The notes beneath the pieces were generated by a model, which saw nothing but the letters and a program-made list of their open reading frames with translations, had not been told where the DNA came from and made no database searches. A DNA stretch of 64,000 nucleotides, taken from the NCBI GenBank assembly GCA_041667185.1, contig JBAYFM010000008.1, forward strand, positions 1,714 to 65,713, read 5' to 3'. The position numbers and the translations under genes were made by a program. This DNA is from Patescibacteria group bacterium. Lineage in GTDB: Bacteria; Patescibacteriota; Patescibacteriia; SG8-24. Shown piece after piece: positions 6,888 to 61,723 of this stretch (within the stretch, counting starts at the first letter, position 1; the number at the start of each line of letters is the position of its first letter).

Positions 6888-6988
6888 GGGTAATTCATGT
6901 TTGATACTTAAAATTTTACCATATTTTAGGTCAAAAATCCATATTGACCGGCCTTGGAGCTAAAGGTATCCTAAGCGTTGGATGATTC

Positions 6989-7416
6989 GGTTTGACGGGT
7001 ACATTCAGTACAAATAAAATGGACGAAATACTTGATCATTTTGGCGGACCCTTGGGCTCTTAGCTTAATGGGAAGCCGCGGTTGTGCGGCTTGCGCCGAG
7101 AGGTGGCGGCCTTAGCCGCGCATCTGTAGTGTTCAGTCGCTAGCGCGACTAAACTGCGTCATAGAGCACCCGGTTTGACGAGAACATTCAGAATAAATAA
7201 AACGAACGAGATCCTCGATAATTCTGGTGGACCTGGGCCTGTAGCTTAACGGGAAGCCGTGGTTGTGCGGCTTGCGCCGAGAGGTGGCGGCCTTAGCCGC
7301 GCATTCGTAGTGTTCAGTCGCTGGCGCGACTGAACCGCGTCGTAGAGCAGCCGTTTTGACGAGCACTTTCAGAAACTATAAAAGGACGAGATACTTGATC
7401 ATTTTGGCGGACCCTT
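6989..7416 (+). repeat. two tandem ~182-bp units, each carrying a 5' leader plus a tRNA-Ala 5' fragment interrupted by a 91-nt GC-rich hairpin insert (family-1 element)
   Basis: Units start at GGTTTGACG at 6989, 7172 and 7353. tRNA-Ala 5' fragment GGGCTCTTAGCTTAATGG at 7054-7071 (diverged copy 7235-7252). Inserts at 7072-7162 and 7253-7343 (GGAAGCCGCGGTTGTGCGGCTTGCGCCGAGAGGTGGCGGCCTTAGCCGCG...AGTCGCTAGCGCGACT...). The tRNA sequence then resumes with AGAGCACCCGGTTTG (7163-7177) and breaks in the anticodon loop. Confidence 0.85.
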
Positions 7417-7490
7417 GGGCTCTTAGCTTAATGGCAGAGCACCCGGTTTGCATCCGGGAGACGTGGGTTCGATTCCCACAGGGTCCACCA
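7417..7490 (+). tRNA. tRNA-Ala (anticodon UGC)
   Basis: Acceptor GGGCUCU/AGGGUCC with G3:U70. Anticodon loop UUUGCAU, T-loop UUCGAUU, encoded CCA. Cloverleaf folded by hand. Confidence 0.9.
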
Positions 7491-7492
7491 AA

Positions 7493-7987
7493 ATGATGAA
7501 GTGCATTATCAAGATCATGAATCCAAAGTCCAAAAAACTGACCTTCGATCTCCGCTCGACCTATCTCGCGGTCATCAGGAACAGCGTCGGAACCAAAATG
7601 TTCCGCAATTCCTGTGGACGCGCAGCCGGCCGAGCTGTTGATCTGACCCGGGGCGGGCGCTTGTCCTGCGCATTTTTCGTCACTTCGGTCCTGCGTATTT
7701 TCGGATTGATCAAAGAACAGCACACGACCGTTGGTGGCGCGGTCCGGGACCTGGAACAGAGCGGCTGGCGGCCAGTGAAGACGGCGCGGCCGGGCGACAT
7801 CCTGGTCTGGGAAGCGGTCGTCGGCCAGGACGGCAATCATGAACATATCGGATTTTTGATCGCGCCCGGCGTCGCGGTCAGCAACAGCACTCGCGCGCGC
7901 CTGCCGGCCGAACATCATTGGACCTACGGCGTCCGCGCCGGCAAGCCGGTCCGGCGCGTCATGACGATCTACCGCTGGAACTTCTAG
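7493..7987 (+). CDS. hypothetical protein (possible NlpC/P60- or CHAP-like Cys/His fold)
   Basis: Start MMKCIIKIMNPKSKK directly after the tRNA. Contains a ...NSCGRAAGRA... Cys and a later NHEHIGFL His arrangement. The antisense ORF 7376-8005 overlaps the tRNA and is rejected. Confidence 0.4.
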   Translation: MMKCIIKIMNPKSKKLTFDLRSTYLAVIRNSVGTKMFRNSCGRAAGRAVDLTRGGRLSCAFFVTSVLRIFGLIKEQHTTVGGAVRDLEQSGWRPVKTARPGDILVWEAVVGQDGNHEHIGFLIAPGVAVSNSTRARLPAEHHWTYGVRAGKPVRRVMTIYRWNF

Positions 7988-18861: not shown

Positions 18862-19938
18862 TTGATTGTGCCGATGCTCGCTGCGCGCAATGAGGGATCC
18901 TGGGACGCTTTCGTTCAGGCGAACGGCGGATGTTTTCTGCAATCCTGGGGCTGGTCCAGGTTCCAGGAAGCCGCCGGCCGGACCGCTTTCCGCTATCAGA
19001 TCGCCGAGCCTTCGGCGACCGGTTCTCCCGACGATGGCGAAACCTCGGTCCAGTTCTTGGTGCTCCGCCACGCGCTGCCGCTGGGCGCGGCTTATGCTTA
19101 TGTTCCGCGCGGCCCAGTGCTAGCGCGTGAAGGCGTTTTCGATCTCGGTCGTTTCGGTTCGTTCGTCGGCGCCTTGCGCGAAGCGGCTCAGCGCGAAGGT
19201 TGCATCTTCGCCCGCGTCGAGCTGCCGTATCCGCAGACCGGCGGTCCGGTCAGTATTCCCGAACTGGAGAGTCTGGGTTTCCGTTACGCCAAGTCGCTCC
19301 AGCCAGCGGATACTTCTATCGTCGATCTTGATCTGAGCGAGGAGGAATTGCTCGCGGCCATGCATCCGAAGACGCGTTATAATATCCGTCTCGCCGCGAA
19401 ACACGGGGTCGAGGTGCGCGAGGCTGTTCATGAGAACGCTCATGTCTTTCGCCAGGAGGTCGGAACATTCTGGCGTCTGCTCGCCGAAACTTCGGAGCGC
19501 GACAAGTTCCACACCCACTCGCAGGCTTATTACGAGACCATGCTCGACGTCCTGTCGCCGAAAAAAGACGGCGGCCTCAAGGTGCGGCTGGTCTTCGCAT
19601 TATATAAAGGAGAGCCGGCCGCCGCGGCGATCGTCGCTGAATACGGCGATACCGTGACTTATCTGCACGGCGCCTCTTCCAGCCGGCTGCGCCAGTACAT
19701 GGCGCCGTACCTGCTGCACTGGAAGCTGATCCAGGAAGCCAAGGCCCGCGGATTCGCCAAATACGACTTTTGGGGCGTGGCGCCGACGGACGATCCGGAG
19801 CATCCCTGGGCCGGCATCACCCGGTTCAAGCGCGGCTTCGGCGGCCGTCGTGAGTCGTATCTGGGAGCCTGGGAGTTGCCGATAAGCGGACTTTGGTATA
19901 ATCTCTATCGGTTCGCGAAGAGATTCAAGAACGTTTGA
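18862..19938 (+). CDS. FemAB-family peptidoglycan interpeptide-bridge aminoacyltransferase (FemX-like)
   Basis: Methicillin-resistance FemAB family features: FLQSWGW, YLHGASS..., KRGFGG at C-terminus. Confidence 0.75.
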   Translation: MIVPMLAARNEGSWDAFVQANGGCFLQSWGWSRFQEAAGRTAFRYQIAEPSATGSPDDGETSVQFLVLRHALPLGAAYAYVPRGPVLAREGVFDLGRFGSFVGALREAAQREGCIFARVELPYPQTGGPVSIPELESLGFRYAKSLQPADTSIVDLDLSEEELLAAMHPKTRYNIRLAAKHGVEVREAVHENAHVFRQEVGTFWRLLAETSERDKFHTHSQAYYETMLDVLSPKKDGGLKVRLVFALYKGEPAAAAIVAEYGDTVTYLHGASSSRLRQYMAPYLLHWKLIQEAKARGFAKYDFWGVAPTDDPEHPWAGITRFKRGFGGRRESYLGAWELPISGLWYNLYRFAKRFKNV

Positions 19939-19973
19939 CAAATAAGTGGCGGGGCATCCGTCATTTCAGATCC

Positions 19974-20260
19974 GTGCGCCCGTAGTACAACGGATAAGCC
20001 CGCTTGATATAATAAGGAAAAGATATGCGGGCTTGCGGCCAGAGGTGGCGGCCTTAGCCGCGTGTCTATAATGTCCGATTGCTGCGCAACCGGACTGAGC
20101 CTAAGCCCGCTTGATATAATAAGGAAAAGATATGCGGGCTTGCGGCCAGAGGTGGCGGCCTTAGCCGCGTGTCTATAATGTCCGATTGCTGCGCAACCGG
20201 ACTGAGCCGTAGAATGCGATCTTTAAAACCCCATCAGTAGACGGAAGTCGTCGATTTTTT
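19974..20260 (+). repeat. tRNA-Arg 5' fragment (acceptor to D-loop), two tandem family-1 hairpin elements (R1, R2), then a short tRNA fragment
   Basis: GTGCGCCCGTAGTACAACGGATA (19974-19996) matches the tRNA-Arg 5' end. R1 19997-20103 and R2 20104-20210 are near-identical (AGCCCGC-ATrich loop-GCGGGCT, TGCGGCCAGAGGTGGCGGCCTTAGCCGCG, GTCCGATTGCTGCGCAACCGGAC). AGAATGCGA (20211-20219) is the tRNA D-stem 3' / anticodon-stem 5' side. Confidence 0.85.
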
Positions 20261-20262
20261 GT

Positions 20263-20337
20263 GCGCCCGTAGTTCAACGGATAGAATGCGAGCCTCCGAA
20301 GCTTGAGATCTAAGTTCGATTCTTAGCGGGCGCACCA
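20263..20337 (+). tRNA. tRNA-Arg (anticodon CCG)
   Basis: Acceptor GCGCCCG/CGGGCGC, anticodon loop CUCCGAA, T-loop UUCGAUU, discriminator A, CCA encoded. Confidence 0.9.
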
Positions 20338-20344
20338 CTAAAGG

Positions 20345-20368
20345 ACAGCATCACGAATGCTGTTTTTT
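20345..20368 (+). terminator. rho-independent terminator after tRNA-Arg
   Basis: ACAGCATCACGAATGCTGT hairpin followed by TTTTTT. Confidence 0.7.
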
Positions 20369-20423
20369 AGTTTCCCGCCTTTGGCGGGACCCCGCCTTCC
20401 TCGAAGTAAATATAAGTGGCGGG

Positions 20424-20733
20424 GCAACGGATAAGCCCGCCCCGCACTTCGTGCGGGGACCAGGGCGGGCTTGCGGCCAGAGGTGGCGGCCTCCGCCGCG
20501 TGTTCTTTGTGTCCGGTCGCTGCGCAACCGGACTGGGCCTAAGCCCGCTTGATATAATAAGGAAAAGATATGCGGGCTTGCGGCCAAAAGTAGCGGCCTT
20601 AGCCGCGTGTCCATAATATCCGGTCGTTTAGCGACCGGACTGGGCCATAGAATGCGAGCCTCCGAAGCTTGAGATCCAAGTTCGATTCTTTGCCACCCGC
20701 AGCTTTGGCGGAGGGTGGTTAGCGGGCGCACCA
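20424..20733 (+). pseudogene. disrupted tRNA-Arg copy: D-loop fragment, two family-1 elements (R3, R4), tRNA 3' part with a 28-nt hairpin in the T-stem; no 5' acceptor strand
   Basis: CAACGGATA (20424-20432); R3 20433-20540 (variant with inner hairpin CCCCGCACTTCGTGCGGGG); R4 20541-20646; AGAATGCGAGCCTCCGAAGCTTGAGATCCAAGTTCGATTCTT (20647-20690); 28-nt hairpin TGCCACCCGCAGCTTTGGCGGAGGGTGG (20691-20718); TAGCGGGCGCACCA (20719-20733). Confidence 0.75.
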
Positions 20734-20861
20734 CCCCACGTCGCTCAAACTGCGGTTTGAGCTATGTGGGGTTGTAAGTATTGTTCTGACAGTCACGGAG
20801 ACTATAAAAGAAAAAACAGCGGCCACAAGGCTGCTGTTTTAGTTTGATTTGATCTCGTCGG

Positions 20862-32030: not shown

Positions 32031-32099
32031 GCCGCCGCGGCATTTCAGAAATCGCGGACCACAAAGTTATTCGTTTCAATGAACGGCGGGGTCCCGCCC

Positions 32100-32230
32100 G
32101 GAGGCGGGAGAACCGGAGTATATTCCGCGGCCTATGATGCAGTCTGACCGCGAAGCGGGCGGACAGTTACAAATTCGCGGCTAAGGCCGCCACTTCTCGG
32201 CGCAACCCGCATGACCGCGGGTTACAAAAA
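32100..32230 (-). repeat. orphan copy of the family-1 GC-rich hairpin element (minus-strand orientation)
   Basis: Reverse complement reads TAACCCGCGGTCATGCGGGTTGCGCCGAGAAGTGGCGGCCTTAGCCGCGAATTTGTAACTGTCCGCCCGCTTCGCGGTCAGACTGCATCAT. This is collinear with the tRNA-Ala inserts (core TGCGCCGAGA[G/A]GTGGCGGCCTTAGCCGCG identical). The neighbouring TCTCCCGCCTCCGGGCGGGACCCCGCC is also shared with 20371-20400. Confidence 0.8.
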
Positions 32231-36707: not shown

Positions 36708-36795
36708 TTCAGCACAAGTGTTCTTTTTATGGCAGGCCTCAAGTATGCCTAATGACAGGCGTACAGGGGGTAAGCCAAAAACAAGGAGTCAGGTC

Positions 36796-37809
36796 ATGGT
36801 CCAGAAGAAGAGTGAGTTCGTCAGTGCCGCCGGCACCACCTTTGAGATCATCCAGAAGCTCTCCGGAGCCGTCCGCGACCTCGGCGGGTCGGATGATCAC
36901 CTCCGTCGGATCCTCTCCGACGAGGAGCTTCGTCGCGAGATCGCCAAGCTGCTCGTTGCGGGTACTTGTCGCAAAACCCTTGGTGACATGCTCAAGGCCT
37001 GCGGCAATGACTGGGCGAACTCCGCCATTACCGAGGAACATTTCCCGGTGAAGCCCGAACTCTTCACTGTGGCCGGCACCAAGGTCTTTCACTTCAACCG
37101 AATCATGACCACGAAGGAGGTCGAGGCGGCCATCAGGGCCAAGGGGTACGAGCCAGCCTCGATCGAGACTCTCCTCGCCTACGGCGTGGAGAATCCCAGA
37201 GAGCAGCGGAAGCACCCCATCGTCGCCCTCGGCTCCTCCTGGGTGCATCCCGGCGGCAGCCGTGAGGTCCCTTGTCTGTGCGAGTACGACCGCAAGCGGC
37301 AACTTCGCCTGTGGTATGCCAACCCCAAGAACTATTGGTGCGAGGACTACTGTTTCCTCGCCTCCCGCAAGTCCAGCATGTTGTTCGTCGCGGACCCCCA
37401 GCTCAATGTCTTCGATCAGATGATCGAAGACTGCAAGTTTGTTGATGTCGACCACGACATCAACGAGCAGAACTTTCCACTCGCCGGCCCGGTCGTAGAC
37501 GTGTCAGACATGCTGCTGGTCAGCCAGAAAGATTTTGGCAGCCAGGGCAAAACCTTCGCTCAGATTAAGACCTTTATCGACAGCGAGGGTTATCGTTGCG
37601 CGACTCTAGCCGAGCTGATTGACTACGCTAAGGCGAAGTGGGACGACAAGGATGCAGTCATCGCTCTCGGCTCCTTCTGGGTGGATCAGCATGGTCATCG
37701 TGTCGTACCGCGGCTGTATAGGGGTGTTCATGGTCCCGGGCTAGATCTGCTGGATCGTCTTGATGACTTGTCGGGTATTTCATACTCGTTCCTCGTCGTC
37801 CGCAAGTAA
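36796..37809 (+). CDS. hypothetical protein, paralog A (337 aa; two copies of an unknown ~90-aa domain)
   Basis: MVQKKSEFVSAAGTTFEIIQKLSGAVRDLGGSDDHLRRILSDEELRREIA N-terminus, about 85% identical to paralog B. Internal repeats (...GYEPASIETLLAYG...VALGSSWVHPGGSREVP / ...GYRCATLAELIDYAKAKW...IALGSFWVDQHGHRVVP). Ends FLVVRK. SD AAGGAG 8 nt upstream. Confidence 0.6.
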   Translation: MVQKKSEFVSAAGTTFEIIQKLSGAVRDLGGSDDHLRRILSDEELRREIAKLLVAGTCRKTLGDMLKACGNDWANSAITEEHFPVKPELFTVAGTKVFHFNRIMTTKEVEAAIRAKGYEPASIETLLAYGVENPREQRKHPIVALGSSWVHPGGSREVPCLCEYDRKRQLRLWYANPKNYWCEDYCFLASRKSSMLFVADPQLNVFDQMIEDCKFVDVDHDINEQNFPLAGPVVDVSDMLLVSQKDFGSQGKTFAQIKTFIDSEGYRCATLAELIDYAKAKWDDKDAVIALGSFWVDQHGHRVVPRLYRGVHGPGLDLLDRLDDLSGISYSFLVVRK

Positions 37810-38047
37810 CTCTCGAATCCTTTCGGCCCATACCACGTCGTGGTGCGGGCCGATTTTTTTATACTGATGTTTGCGGCTAAGACGACAACCGGCGGCTACG
37901 GCTGCGGACAGTAGAGTCTGGAAAAGATCATTGACAAAATCGCCTATTTATGCGATTGTTTCGGCACAAGTGTTCTTTTCATGACAGTCCCTAGGTTCGT
38001 CTGATGTCAGACGTATAAGGGGTAAACCATAAACAAGGAGTCAGGTC

Positions 38048-38611
38048 ATGGTCCAGAAGAAGAGCGAGTCCGTCTTTGCCGTCGGCACCACCTTTGAGAT
38101 CATCGTGAAGCTCTCCGGAGCCGTCCGCGACCTCGGCGGGTCGGATGATCACCTCCGCCGGATCCTCTCCGATGAGAAGCTCCGTCGCGAGATCGCTGGG
38201 CTGCTGGTCGGTAAGTCCCTCGCCGAGATGATCGCCAAGTGCAAGTTCAGCTACGTTAACCCCGTCATCGACGAGCAGAACCTTCTGCTCGCCGGACCGG
38301 TCGCGGATATATCGGACATGCTGGTTGTCAGCCAGAAGGATCTTGGCGGTCAGGATATGACCACTGCCGCAGTCGAGGCTGCCATTGACTGTATGGGTTA
38401 CCGTCCTGCGTCCCTCGTCGAACAGCTCGTCTATGCCAAGGCGAAGTGGAACGGTAAGGACCACGTGAACGCTTGGGTGGAATCGCATAACCAACGCTAC
38501 ATCTCGAGTCTGTCCGGGGATGGCGCCGGCGACCGCGAGTTGACCTTGTTCCGAATCGTATCTGGGTTCTGCTGGTTCGGTGACATTCGTTTTCTCGTCG
38601 TTCGCAAGTAA
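38048..38611 (+). CDS. hypothetical protein, paralog B (187 aa; one copy of the unknown domain)
   Basis: Same N-terminal 55 aa and C-terminal FLVVRK as paralog A. Conserved leader AAACAAGGAGTCAGGTCATG. Hairpin terminator follows. Confidence 0.6.
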   Translation: MVQKKSESVFAVGTTFEIIVKLSGAVRDLGGSDDHLRRILSDEKLRREIAGLLVGKSLAEMIAKCKFSYVNPVIDEQNLLLAGPVADISDMLVVSQKDLGGQDMTTAAVEAAIDCMGYRPASLVEQLVYAKAKWNGKDHVNAWVESHNQRYISSLSGDGAGDRELTLFRIVSGFCWFGDIRFLVVRK

Positions 38612-44306: not shown

Positions 44307-44764
44307 AATTAAAATGTGTTCGCCGCGGAGAGCCGCAGCCGGAGCGAGAGCACTCCTGATCTATAAGAGTCCCGTTTGCACGGGTGAATATTGGGTTAAT
44401 GTGTTCCTCAACCATCTCTAACGGATACGACCGTTACCGCAGAGGAAAGTGGGAGATGCGGAGGGGATAGTTCGCTATCCGCTTTGCGCCGCTCATTTTC
44501 TTCTGTCCTTATCAGGCAACTGCCTCTATCATTATTATACCATAATGACAGATCCGGTTGTTTGCTGTCGTCCGATACCATCCCACCTAGCTCGAGCCGC
44601 GCTCGAGCGATGTGGGATGGTGCTGCGGGAGGGAGTCCCGCTCGCTTCGACTCGCGGTCCGGGGCGCTGCGCACTGGCGCTTCGCCGGCTCGCGCCTCTC
44701 GCGCCCTTCGACTCCTTATTTATACCAGATGACTGTCGCCGCCCTGTGGGCGGCACCAATCATC

Positions 44765-44850: not shown

Positions 44851-45117
44851 GTATATTTTTATTGCGGGAGGGAGTCGGCCTCCCTCGTAAAAGATCTGAA
44901 ATTACTCGGTCGGCCCGGGGCGCCCCTTGGCGCCCGTGCGCCGCTGCGTTGACTTGCGGCGCACCCCTCATGACCTTGCGATCGCTAGCTCCTGAAGCTA
45001 GTGCGTCTGCCATTTGTTTCGCTCGCGTAGAAATTGTAATCGCTCGCGAAACCCCGGGCACGTCTTCGCGCCCGTGCGGCGCTCGCCGGTTCGCGCCGCA
45101 CCCACCGCAGCGAGAAC
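44851..45117 (-). pseudogene. disrupted tRNA-Leu copy carrying two related ~80-nt GC-rich hairpin inserts (family-2) in the D-stem and T-stem
   Basis: In tRNA orientation: GCTGCGGTGG, insert A (plus-strand 45016-45100; GTGCGGCGC-loop-GCGCCGCAC GGGCGCGAAG...), AAATGGCAGACGCACTAGCTTCAGGAGCTAGCGATCGCAAGGTCATGAGGG, insert B (44885-44963; GTGCGCCGC-loop-GCGGCGCAC GGGCGCCAAGGGGCGCCC...), then a degenerate T-stem/acceptor GGGAGGCCGACTCCCTCCCGCA. Confidence 0.75.
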
Positions 45118-45159
45118 TTTTGTCCGTATAATATGCCTGATTTTGGCTGATTTGTCAAG

Positions 45160-56726: not shown

Positions 56727-56801
56727 TGGTCGGCCCGGATGGATTCGAACCATCGACCAACGCCTTATAAGAGCGCTGCTCTACCGCTGAGCTACGGGCC
56801 G
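56727..56801 (-). tRNA. tRNA-Ile (anticodon UAU)
   Basis: Reverse complement CGGCCCG-UA-GCUC-AGCGGUA-GAGC-A-GCGCU-CUUAUAA-GGCGU-UGGUC-GAUGG-UUCGAAU-CCAUC-CGGGCCG-A-CCA. Anticodon loop C-U-UAU-A-A. 75 nt. Confidence 0.75.
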
Positions 56802-61377: not shown

Positions 61378-61436
61378 GGGGAGTATAAACTGCGAGAATC
61401 AAAAACACCCCAGGGCAAGCCTGGGGTATTTTTGAT

Positions 61437-61610
61437 GGTGGGCGGCAGAGGAGTCGAACCTCTGACCTTCACAATGTCAATGTGACGCTCTAACGCCCAG
61501 TCCGGTCGTCTTGCGACCGGACACAAGAAATGCGCGGCGGCGGCCGCCACATCTGGCGTCAAGCCCGCCCTGGTCCCCGCGTTCGCGCGGGGCGGGCTTA
61601 ACCAACTGAG
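61437..61610 (-). pseudogene. partial tRNA-Val copy (D-loop to CCA) carrying a 105-nt family-1 element in the D-loop; no 5' acceptor strand
   Basis: In tRNA orientation: CTCAGTTGGTTA, family-1 element (plus-strand 61494-61598; AGCCCGCCCCGCGCGAACGCGGGGACCAGGGCGGGCT TGACGCCAGATGTGGCGGCCGCCGCCGCG...GTCCGGTCGCAAGACGACCGGAC), then TTAGAGCGTCACATTGACATTGTGAAGGTCAGAGGTTCGACTCCTCTGCCGCCCACCA, identical to the intact gene. Confidence 0.8.
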
Positions 61611-61646: not shown

Positions 61647-61723
61647 TGGTGGGCGGCAGAGGAGTCGAACCTCTGACCTTCACAATGTCAATGTGACGCT
61701 CTAACCAACTGAGCTAGCCGCCC
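61647..61723 (-). tRNA. tRNA-Val (anticodon GAC)
   Basis: Reverse complement GGGCGGC-UA-GCUC-AGUUGGUUA-GAGC-G-UCACA-UUGACAU-UGUGA-AGGUC-AGAGG-UUCGACU-CCUCU-GCCGCCC-A-CCA. Confidence 0.9.

Follow-up and report, generated by a model that had tools for sequence, protein, structure and literature searches.

Small structured repeats in truncated tRNA gene copies of Patescibacteria: a candidate family of mobile elements homing to the D-loop

Several described systems resemble element E, the non-coding insert reported here from a 64,000-nt stretch of a Patescibacteria group bacterium genome (assembly GCA_041667185.1, contig JBAYFM010000008.1, positions 1,714 to 65,713 of the forward strand; hereafter the window). 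The MITE-like repeats of bacteria (MITE, a miniature transposable element with inverted repeats), namely Correia/NEMIS, RUP, ERIC, RPE, YPAL and CIR, have in common with E a length below 200 bp, non-coding sequence, the absence of any encoded enzyme, multiple copies, 5′-TA-3′ borders consistent with duplication of a TA target, and the occurrence of filled and empty sites; their transcribed copies form stable RNA structures (PMC2229807). The palindromes derived from IS200/IS605 and the REP/REPIN-RAYT systems, which use HUH enzymes and transposition of single-stranded DNA, resemble E in the lack of inverted terminal repeats, in strand-specific structure, in insertion by a short specific sequence and in the formation of clusters and tandems. 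Phages, integrative and conjugative elements (ICEs) and genomic islands that target tRNA genes share with E the target, the retention of an intact gene with a partial copy beside it, and foreign flanks at the restored gene. Group I introns of bacterial tRNA genes are, like E, structured RNA-sense insertions at a precise position of a tRNA loop, and they occur in the same phylum, where they lie in anticodon loops; the survey describing them mentions nothing like E (PMC13011429). The split and multi-intron tRNAs of Nanoarchaeota and Thermoproteales offer 5′ and 3′ pieces and non-canonical insertions, including some in the D-arm. For E itself, full-text literature searches found no precedent, in agreement with an earlier note on this DNA, whose author knew of no such element.

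Eight copies of E, 88–110 nt long, were identified in the window by self-BLAST and by two covariance models, R1 and R2, built here; the insert core has five window matches at three or fewer mismatches vs none in 100 shuffles. Seven of the eight lie within truncated tRNA copies (two in tRNA-Ala, four in two tRNA-Arg clusters and one in tRNA-Val). All seven follow the D-loop GG(N), sit at the TA preceding the 3′ strand of the D stem (tRNA position 20/21) and have the orientation of the tRNA. The same position and orientation recur in a tRNA-Lys copy of another organism and in relatives of the Arg locus, making four different tRNAs. Both ends are flanked by TA in the Arg and Val copies, in the solo copy that lies outside any tRNA, and in copies from the related sequences L002, L004, L012 and L014 described below. 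Tandem copies are spaced by exactly TA, and in three copies at Ala loci the left T is mutated. The border TA is compatible with a target-site duplication or with being part of E. The only open reading frame (ORF) that E overlaps is a spurious antisense one of 77 aa, and the GC content of the copies ranges from 0.55 to 0.78, vs 0.60 for the window. We propose, as a reading with about an even chance of being right, that the copies of E make up a new family of mobile repeats, small, structured, non-coding and non-autonomous, which home to TA at tRNA position 20/21. The host lineage is Uhrbacteria/Parcubacteria-like.

The earlier note had described positions 6989–7490 as a tRNA-Ala gene preceded by two tandem partial copies of itself, each with a 91-nt insert in the D-loop and a break in the anticodon loop. 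This layout can be read directly in the sequence and agrees with Tandem Repeats Finder (181-bp period, 2.4 copies and 84% matches at 6988–7431) as well as with ARAGORN and Rfam, both of which place a single intact tRNA-Ala(UGC) in the region, at 7417–7490 (+). Each partial unit consists of a TTGACG promoter-like box, a leader of ∼33 nt, tRNA nucleotides 1–18, the 91-nt GC-rich insert and 15 nt of resumed tRNA (positions 20–34); the tRNA homology ends in the anticodon loop, precisely where the TTGACG −35 box of the next unit begins. A strong sigma-70-type match is confined to unit 1 (6992–7020, +; TTGACG-17-TAAAAT, 10/12). This unit continues with 5′ fragment 1 (GGGCTCTTAGCTTAATGG; 7054–7071, +), which has the allele of the intact gene, with copy Ala1 of E (7072–7163, +, the insert proper being 7072–7162; 99.1 bits with R1, 86.9 bits with R2) and with the resumed tRNA AGAGCACCCGGTTTG (7163–7177, +), which ends at the duplication junction CCGGTTTG/ACGAG. 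Unit 2 has 5′ fragment 2 (GGGCCTGTAGCTTAACGG; 7235–7252, +) with another allele (GGGCCTG acceptor strand), the functional one of the relative L005, followed by copy Ala2 (7253–7344, +, insert 7253–7343; 100.4 bits with R1) and by the resumed positions 20–34, read from the sequence at 7344–7358 (+).

The promoter-like site of unit 1 contains GGTTTGAC, which has a 6–8 nt microhomology with the anticodon arm CCGGTTTGCAT. The relative L006, which has no E, already carries GGTTTGAC in its Ala promoter, including the GGTTTG of the microhomology, so recombination with the anticodon arm would yield exactly the observed repeats of promoter, leader and 5′ part. The array thus probably formed by unequal recombination between GGTTTG in the −35 region of the promoter and GGTTTG in the anticodon arm. 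An analogous junction is present in an array of 3′ halves in L005 and L010, where TGCAT of the anticodon loop equals TGCAT at codons 4–5 of the downstream ORF. That array (L005, 1262–1382, −; L010, 1–100, −) comprises three tandem orphan tRNA-Ala 3′ halves, each running from the anticodon (GCATCC...) through CCA to the end of a 12-nt trailer; the differences between their T stems and between their acceptor strands are compensatory, which gives the impression of descent from different functional alleles.

Several further observations concern the tRNA-Ala gene itself. Its functional allele is not the same in the window, L004 and L005. The D-loop of the intact gene in the window (7434–7441) reads GGCAGAGC, with no TA at position 20/21; the TA used by E is retained in the intact Arg and Val genes and in the Ala alleles of L004 and L005. 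The leader (7021–7053 and 7384–7416) is complementary over ∼25 nt to the acceptor 3′ strand, CCA and 12-nt trailer (7474–7512), with a duplex energy of −35 to −36 kcal/mol vs −12 ± 3 for shuffled leaders. The trailer holds the ATG (7493) of the downstream ORF, and in L005 distinct leader variants pair with distinct trailer variants.

The first tRNA-Arg cluster, ArgA, begins with a tRNA-Arg 5′ fragment of positions 1–21 (19976–19996, +), which occupies the native gene position: its upstream sequence is orthologous to the native upstream sequence of L017. Two E copies follow, ArgA1 (19995–20103, +; 81.4 bits with R2) and ArgA2 (20102–20211, +), which are 100% identical and have a TA in common; after them come tRNA positions 20–29 and the intact tRNA-Arg(CCG) (20263–20337, +; ARAGORN, Rfam). 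In the second cluster, ArgB, a copy of an ArgA upstream motif, ATAAGTGGCGGGGCA, precedes the tRNA-Arg D-loop fragment AACGGATA (20426–20433, +), and then come ArgB1 (20432–20541, +), of a subtype with a GC-rich extension of its first hairpin, ArgB2 (20540–20649, +), located by the covariance models, and a 3′ fragment of positions 19–75 (20648–20733, +). The T stem of this fragment is split by a 29-nt hairpin (CCACCCGCAGCTTTGGCGGAGGGTGG; ∼20690–20718), single-copy in the window. A terminator-like hairpin with a T-run (GACGGAAGTCGTC GATTTTTT) lies at 20240–20262, directly 5′ of the intact tRNA-Arg; a search across 19850–20850 gave no sigma-70-like promoter.

On the minus strand, tRNA-Val(GAC) is intact at 61647–61723 (ARAGORN). 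Beside it, sequence comparison identifies the D-loop fragment CTCAGTTGGTTA (61599–61610, −), which is followed by the Val copy of E (61491–61600, −; self-BLAST and covariance models) and by a 3′ fragment of positions 19–77 (61436–61494, −), which is 100% identical to the intact gene and keeps the native terminator. ArgB1 is 88% identical to the Val copy, yet unlike its neighbour ArgB2, which suggests that E has moved between tRNA loci. The solo copy (32133–32224, −) has no tRNA flank; it is inserted at a TA just past an intrinsic terminator and points the same way as the gene upstream. A short repeat, CCCGCC-N3-5-GGCGGGACCCCGCC, is found near two of these sites, upstream of ArgB (20374–20396, +) and downstream of the solo copy (32085–32108, −). 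ARAGORN also reports false tRNA genes that start within E and run through the orphan 3′ fragment: a second tRNA-Val at 61436–61511 (−), and a second tRNA-Arg in L014 (11321–11393) and L015 (3777–3849). These calls hinted that the 3′ end of E might serve as a substitute acceptor strand; we found only a chance GC-rich resemblance. The finding of E at tRNA-Arg, tRNA-Val and a non-tRNA site, as well as in other genomes, rules out a one-off local duplication, and it removes the implication of the earlier note that the tRNA-Ala gene is peculiar, E being a dispersed repeat family with a patchy distribution among relatives.

An alignment of 15 distinct copies gives E a common fold. The earlier note had proposed a structured element of three hairpins; the structure holds, and a better description of it is a single 5′ hairpin, P1, and a three-way junction that a fourth helix, P4, closes. 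P1 (AAGCCSGC...GCSGGCTT) has a loop or extension of variable length. It is followed, from 5′ to 3′, by the 5′ strand of P4, the junction AGAGGTGG, the hairpin P2, a T-rich spacer, P3, ACTG, the 3′ strand of P4 and (N)TA. P2 is invariant (GCGGC-N4-GCCGC) and can be extended by pairing of AGAGGUG with CRUYU. In the junction alignment 88.6% of the paired cells can form pairs, vs 27–42% when the partners are slid by one to three columns; both sides have changed at 11 pairs vs 1–4 after sliding, and the observed covariation was reached in none of 500 shuffles. It is carried by P3 (CG/UA, GC/AU, UA/CG) and P4 (GC/CG/UA/UG), the latter helix being weakened in the Ala subfamily. Selection on a folded single strand, which the earlier note had derived from compensatory changes between the two Ala inserts, thus finds its support in covariation across all family members. 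The two inserts themselves differ in a loop (TAGC>TGGC), by an A>G on one side only that mends a C·A mismatch, by a C>T on one side only that gives a G·U in P1, and in unpaired segments; none of these differences is compensatory. In the P2 extension we counted 27 G·U vs 9 A·C, with one invariant G·U and one column of seven UA and seven UG. Since G·U pairs are mismatches on the opposite strand, it is the tRNA-sense strand that appears to fold, in the form of RNA or of single-stranded DNA.

Scans of the Ala and Arg clusters with Rfam 15 covariance models (E-value thresholds of 10 and 5) returned tRNAs only, the best non-tRNA matches scoring 15–18 bits, far under the gathering thresholds; no Rfam signature of a group I or group II intron core was found in E. 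Nor did a phage or plasmid source emerge: viral contigs gave no exact-pattern match, and phage and plasmid collections no blastn match. Other candidate functions were rejected. A hammerhead-like core (CUGANGA/GAAA) is not conserved in the junctions. An outward promoter is suggested by a TATAAT in the Arg subtype, but this is unconserved and has no −35 box. A programmable guide of the bridge-RNA or omega-RNA kind was rejected because, on inspection, the variation of the E core does not follow which tRNA flanks it.

We examined ∼210 kb of related sequence, with syntenic loci retrieved via neighbouring genes, and found E in four to five other organisms. Scans with an exact pattern gave at least one true locus in species-representative genomes and at least two in metagenomes, the pattern being too strict for divergent copies such as those of L014/L015; two further species-representative matches are chance occurrences in GC-rich coding sequence. 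In Patescibacteria bacterium STA_55 (L002) a tRNA-Lys 5′ part is followed by three tandem copies of E, the resumed tRNA, a leader and an intact tRNA-Lys. The tRNA-Ala locus has orthologues in L004 and L005 (L010 being the same organism as L005), with one E unit each vs two in the window. At the Arg locus, L012/L013 (FemAB 90% identical) have one E in the Arg 5′ fragment where ArgA of the window has two, and the downstream cluster of L012, corresponding to ArgB, is reduced to a P1 stump. L014/L015 (68%) show the order intact tRNA-Arg, terminator, and tRNA positions 6–21, a divergent E (GC 0.77) and tRNA positions 20–75 with a terminator of their own. L021, with an 89% identical DHH homologue, ends short of the tRNA-Val locus.

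In more distant relatives, L006 (Ala) and L017, L018, L019 and L020 (Arg; 62–65%), the syntenic sites are empty, with plain tRNA genes and neither E nor fragments, whereas those of the window, L004, L005, L010, L012, L014 and L015 are filled. This comparison, which the earlier note had suggested for strains, shows that the presence of E varies between relatives, which points to a mobile or accessory element and not to a component of tRNA-Ala expression. Within ±1.2 kb, extra same-strand tRNA fragments were found at every E-bearing locus and at none of the five insert-free loci. That all this is an assembly artefact, or a chance local duplication limited to the metagenome-assembled genome (MAG) of the window, is hardly credible: metagenomic bins can mis-assemble repeats, and the related contigs L004, L005, L010, L011 and L021 do break at these loci, but identical junctions and architecture come from independent samples and assemblers (NCBI MAG, JGI and ENA; L004, L005, L010, L012 and L013), with coherent sequence differences that include compensatory changes.

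If E is a homing repeat, its history may be pictured as follows. The tRNA-sense single strand, folded as RNA or single-stranded DNA, would be recognised by a trans-acting enzyme, as the G·U asymmetry and the conserved junction bases suggest. Insertion of E would keep to a single orientation and use the TA of position 20/21, which directly precedes the 3′ strand of the D stem, with occasional use of TA sites elsewhere; bounded by TA, E could stack head-to-tail (TA-E-TA-E-TA). Mobility of this kind is suggested by the filled and empty sites, the sharing of subtypes between loci and the tandem arrays, and the reading as a whole also draws on the variable copy number and the decayed copies. The target tRNA genes are apparently single-copy and essential, so that only insertions beside an intact copy of the same tRNA would survive, which would explain the perfect coupling of E to fragments. 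The intact copy would stem from partial tandem duplication (Ala) or from a replacement gene segment with foreign flanks (Val, ArgA), and the disrupted copy would then erode to the fragment seen today. Origin of the 3′ fragments as retro-copies (5′-truncated cDNA) appears less parsimonious than events at the DNA level, because untranscribed promoters form part of the 5′ fragments and the terminators are not alike.

Several findings weigh against mobility in this form. No transposase, integrase, reverse transcriptase or HUH protein is present among the ∼30 ORFs of the window, which belong to housekeeping Pfam families only. Terminal inverted repeats are absent, the ungapped identity of the ends being 6–11/20, no better than shuffles in six of seven subtypes. 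About seven independent insertion events only have been seen. Around the intact Val and Arg copies, the flanking sequences are no duplicates of local sequence, so that a cassette or recombination model fits at least equally well. The 3′ tRNA fragment of L014 matches the intact gene at 100% identity, though the terminators of the two have diverged, which requires gene conversion or some selection on the fragment. Finally, covariation is expected for a mobile element and for a host-functional RNA alike and does not discriminate between the two.

Compared with the described small repeats, E fails two defining features of the MITE-like class, terminal inverted repeats and A+T richness, E being GC-rich; identity with a classical MITE was rejected by the terminal-repeat test. 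It also differs in its fold, which combines a hairpin with a three-way junction of conserved bases in place of a single long stem-loop, and in its strict position and orientation in tRNA genes, always coupled to truncated copies of the target. As in elements mobilised by HUH enzymes, E has a hairpin at its 5′ end and another 8–10 nt from its 3′ end; unlike theirs, these end hairpins, P1 (AAGCCSGC...) and P3 (CCGGTCGC...), are unrelated in sequence, and E has a conserved internal junction. In this small sample six copies lie on the plus strand and two on the minus strand, despite a positive GC skew over nearly the whole window, which suggests that orientation tracks the tRNA and not replication, unlike that of HUH-mobilised elements. 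Neither TnpA nor RAYT is encoded among the ORFs of the window.

A possible, though unlikely, alternative to a homing repeat is a mini integrative cassette, in which the mobile unit would be E together with a replacement tRNA part and a foreign flank, E being a passenger or an arm. Such a cassette would enter after DNA uptake by Campbell-type homologous recombination through conserved tRNA sequence, or by a site-specific recombinase acting at the D-loop TA; the intact gene would be restored and the native part displaced, in the manner of phage or ICE attP at larger scale. Partial tRNA repeats, such as form attL and attR, are present, but just ∼100–200 bp apart. E follows the logic of integrative elements at one-hundredth of their scale. 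At Val, the 3′ fragment that bears E has the native terminator, as comparison with the E-less L022 shows, and the intact gene has an unrelated one; at ArgA, the 5′ fragment has the native upstream sequence seen in L017, and a novel 42-nt segment precedes the intact gene. These unrelated flanks suggest that the incoming DNA, at least sometimes, consisted of replacement tRNA part, foreign flank and E. The cassette is also favoured by the variation of the functional Ala allele between relatives, with orphan halves that derive from formerly functional alleles with compensatory differences in their T stems, and by the perfect coupling of E and fragments. It leaves unexplained the solo copy, the TA-E-TA-E arrays and the use of one position in four different tRNAs, and both terminators of L014 resemble the native one, as plain duplication predicts. 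No integrase was found in the window, and the whole unit would measure only ∼100–200 bp, with 5′ as well as 3′ fragments and tandem arrays that set it apart from known integrative elements. The crossover point in the D-loop is a further difference: to our knowledge, tRNA-targeting integrases cross over in the anticodon loop, the T-loop or the 3′ end, and we count this against the cassette.

We consider it rather improbable that E serves the host as a structured RNA (for example a module for processing or stability, an RNA that binds protein, or a self-cleaving ribozyme of a new kind) expressed from tRNA promoters, with the fragments kept for its expression or maturation. The conserved junction AGAGGTGG, the invariant P2 and the ACTG alongside covarying helices would suit such a role, as would the G·U asymmetry, which favours the transcribed, tRNA-sense strand. 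All copies are co-oriented with upstream transcription, those in Ala, ArgA and Lys lying directly 3′ of tRNA promoters, and the head-to-tail arrays are similar to tandem repeats that bear ribozymes. A host function is difficult to reconcile with the absence of E from syntenic loci of fairly close relatives, its variable copy number and its decay to a stump in L012. The flanking tRNA pieces are heterogeneous: some loci have 5′ parts, others have 3′ parts, and the site at 32 kb has none. Three sets of copies (ArgB, Val and solo) sit past terminators, and the closing helix is weakened in the Ala subfamily.

More speculative, and in our view improbable, is the idea that E acts at the RNA level, as a new small RNA, either similar to a ribozyme or enzyme-guided, which would enter exposed tRNA loops by integration or be released from them by processing, and whose sequence would be copied into DNA again. 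The tRNA fragments and the head-to-tail arrays would then be fossils of an RNA-mediated or rolling-circle mobility undescribed in bacteria, and E would use the D-loop and a sister family the T-loop.

Very improbable, finally, is an intron-like intervening sequence removed from the pre-tRNA by itself or by a host enzyme, with the fragments as decayed intron-bearing genes. Patescibacteria are unusually rich in tRNA introns (PMC13011429), which we count in favour of this explanation together with the precise position in a cloverleaf loop, the fixed sense orientation, the structured RNA and the existence of a second insert family that occupies the T-loop, another exposed loop. However, at none of nine loci or clusters with E (in the window Ala, ArgA, ArgB and Val; elsewhere L002, L004, L005/L010, L012 and L014/L015) does E interrupt a complete tRNA gene, and an intact intron-less gene is always adjacent. 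E is far too small for a group I intron, has no group I or II signature, sits in the D-loop, occurs in tandem, which is not intron-like, and has a solo copy outside tRNAs. The loci likewise differ from split tRNA genes, having a bacterial setting of sigma-70-like promoters and intrinsic terminators, intact Ala, Arg and Val genes, and E in the same sense instead of complementary joining sequences.

The second insert family was noticed at tRNA-Leu(CAG) (44860–45150 and 44617–44712, −), where a near full-length pseudo-copy without the last 6 nt stands behind its own TTGACA promoter and precedes the gene. The pseudo-copy carries two different GC-rich inserts, in the D-arm and in the T-loop, with the common motif GCSGCGCACGGGCGC; past the gene lies a third fragment (T-arm plus acceptor 3′ end) with a T-loop insert of ∼75 nt. 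Judged by their sequence, which is unrelated to E, these inserts appear to form a separate family of tRNA-loop inserts. T-loop inserts (after GGRKTCGAA) also occur in partial 3′ copies of tRNA-Lys in L002 (6200–6350) and of tRNA-Val in L022 (4519–4665), in both cases together with a duplication of the terminator. L022 shares its sample (ERZ27247960) with L007 and L017, all apparently from one organism, in which neither the Ala and Arg loci nor L022 have E; the combination of fragment and insert in this E-less organism indicates that the phenomenon extends beyond E. A near-identical nested hairpin (CCCACRTCGCTC...GAGCTAKGTGGG) follows directly after the CCA of the orphan Arg (20734–20772, +) and Leu (44580–44618, −) 3′ fragments, and not after intact genes.

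A few other features of the window were noted. A 178-bp direct repeat, 93% identical, lies near the 5′ ends of two neighbouring ORFs (36767–36944 vs 38019–38196), and a 37-bp direct repeat at 2363–2399 vs 2428–2464, neither of them related to E. A tRNA-Ile with anticodon UAU is encoded at 56727–56801 (−); bacteria usually decode AUA with a lysidine-modified CAU tRNA. A partial tRNA-Ile copy suspected at ∼57000 amounts to just 12 nt inside an RluA-like ORF and was treated as chance.

Whatever the mode of spread, the fragments have practical consequences, since they mislead tRNA finders, as in the false Val and Arg calls by ARAGORN, and break metagenomic contigs. With its covarying fold, its conserved junction bases and no Rfam counterpart, E is a candidate for a new protein-recognised or catalytic nucleic-acid structure, and models R1 and R2 make a genome-wide census of E directly possible. 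The coupling of E to fragments offers a tractable natural example of a selfish insert coexisting with an essential gene. If the homing reading is true, E would be the first known case of a small repeat in bacteria that homes to one single position within tRNA genes, and this in tiny repeat-poor genomes, and it would account for the gene fragments that litter the tRNA loci of these members of the candidate phyla radiation.

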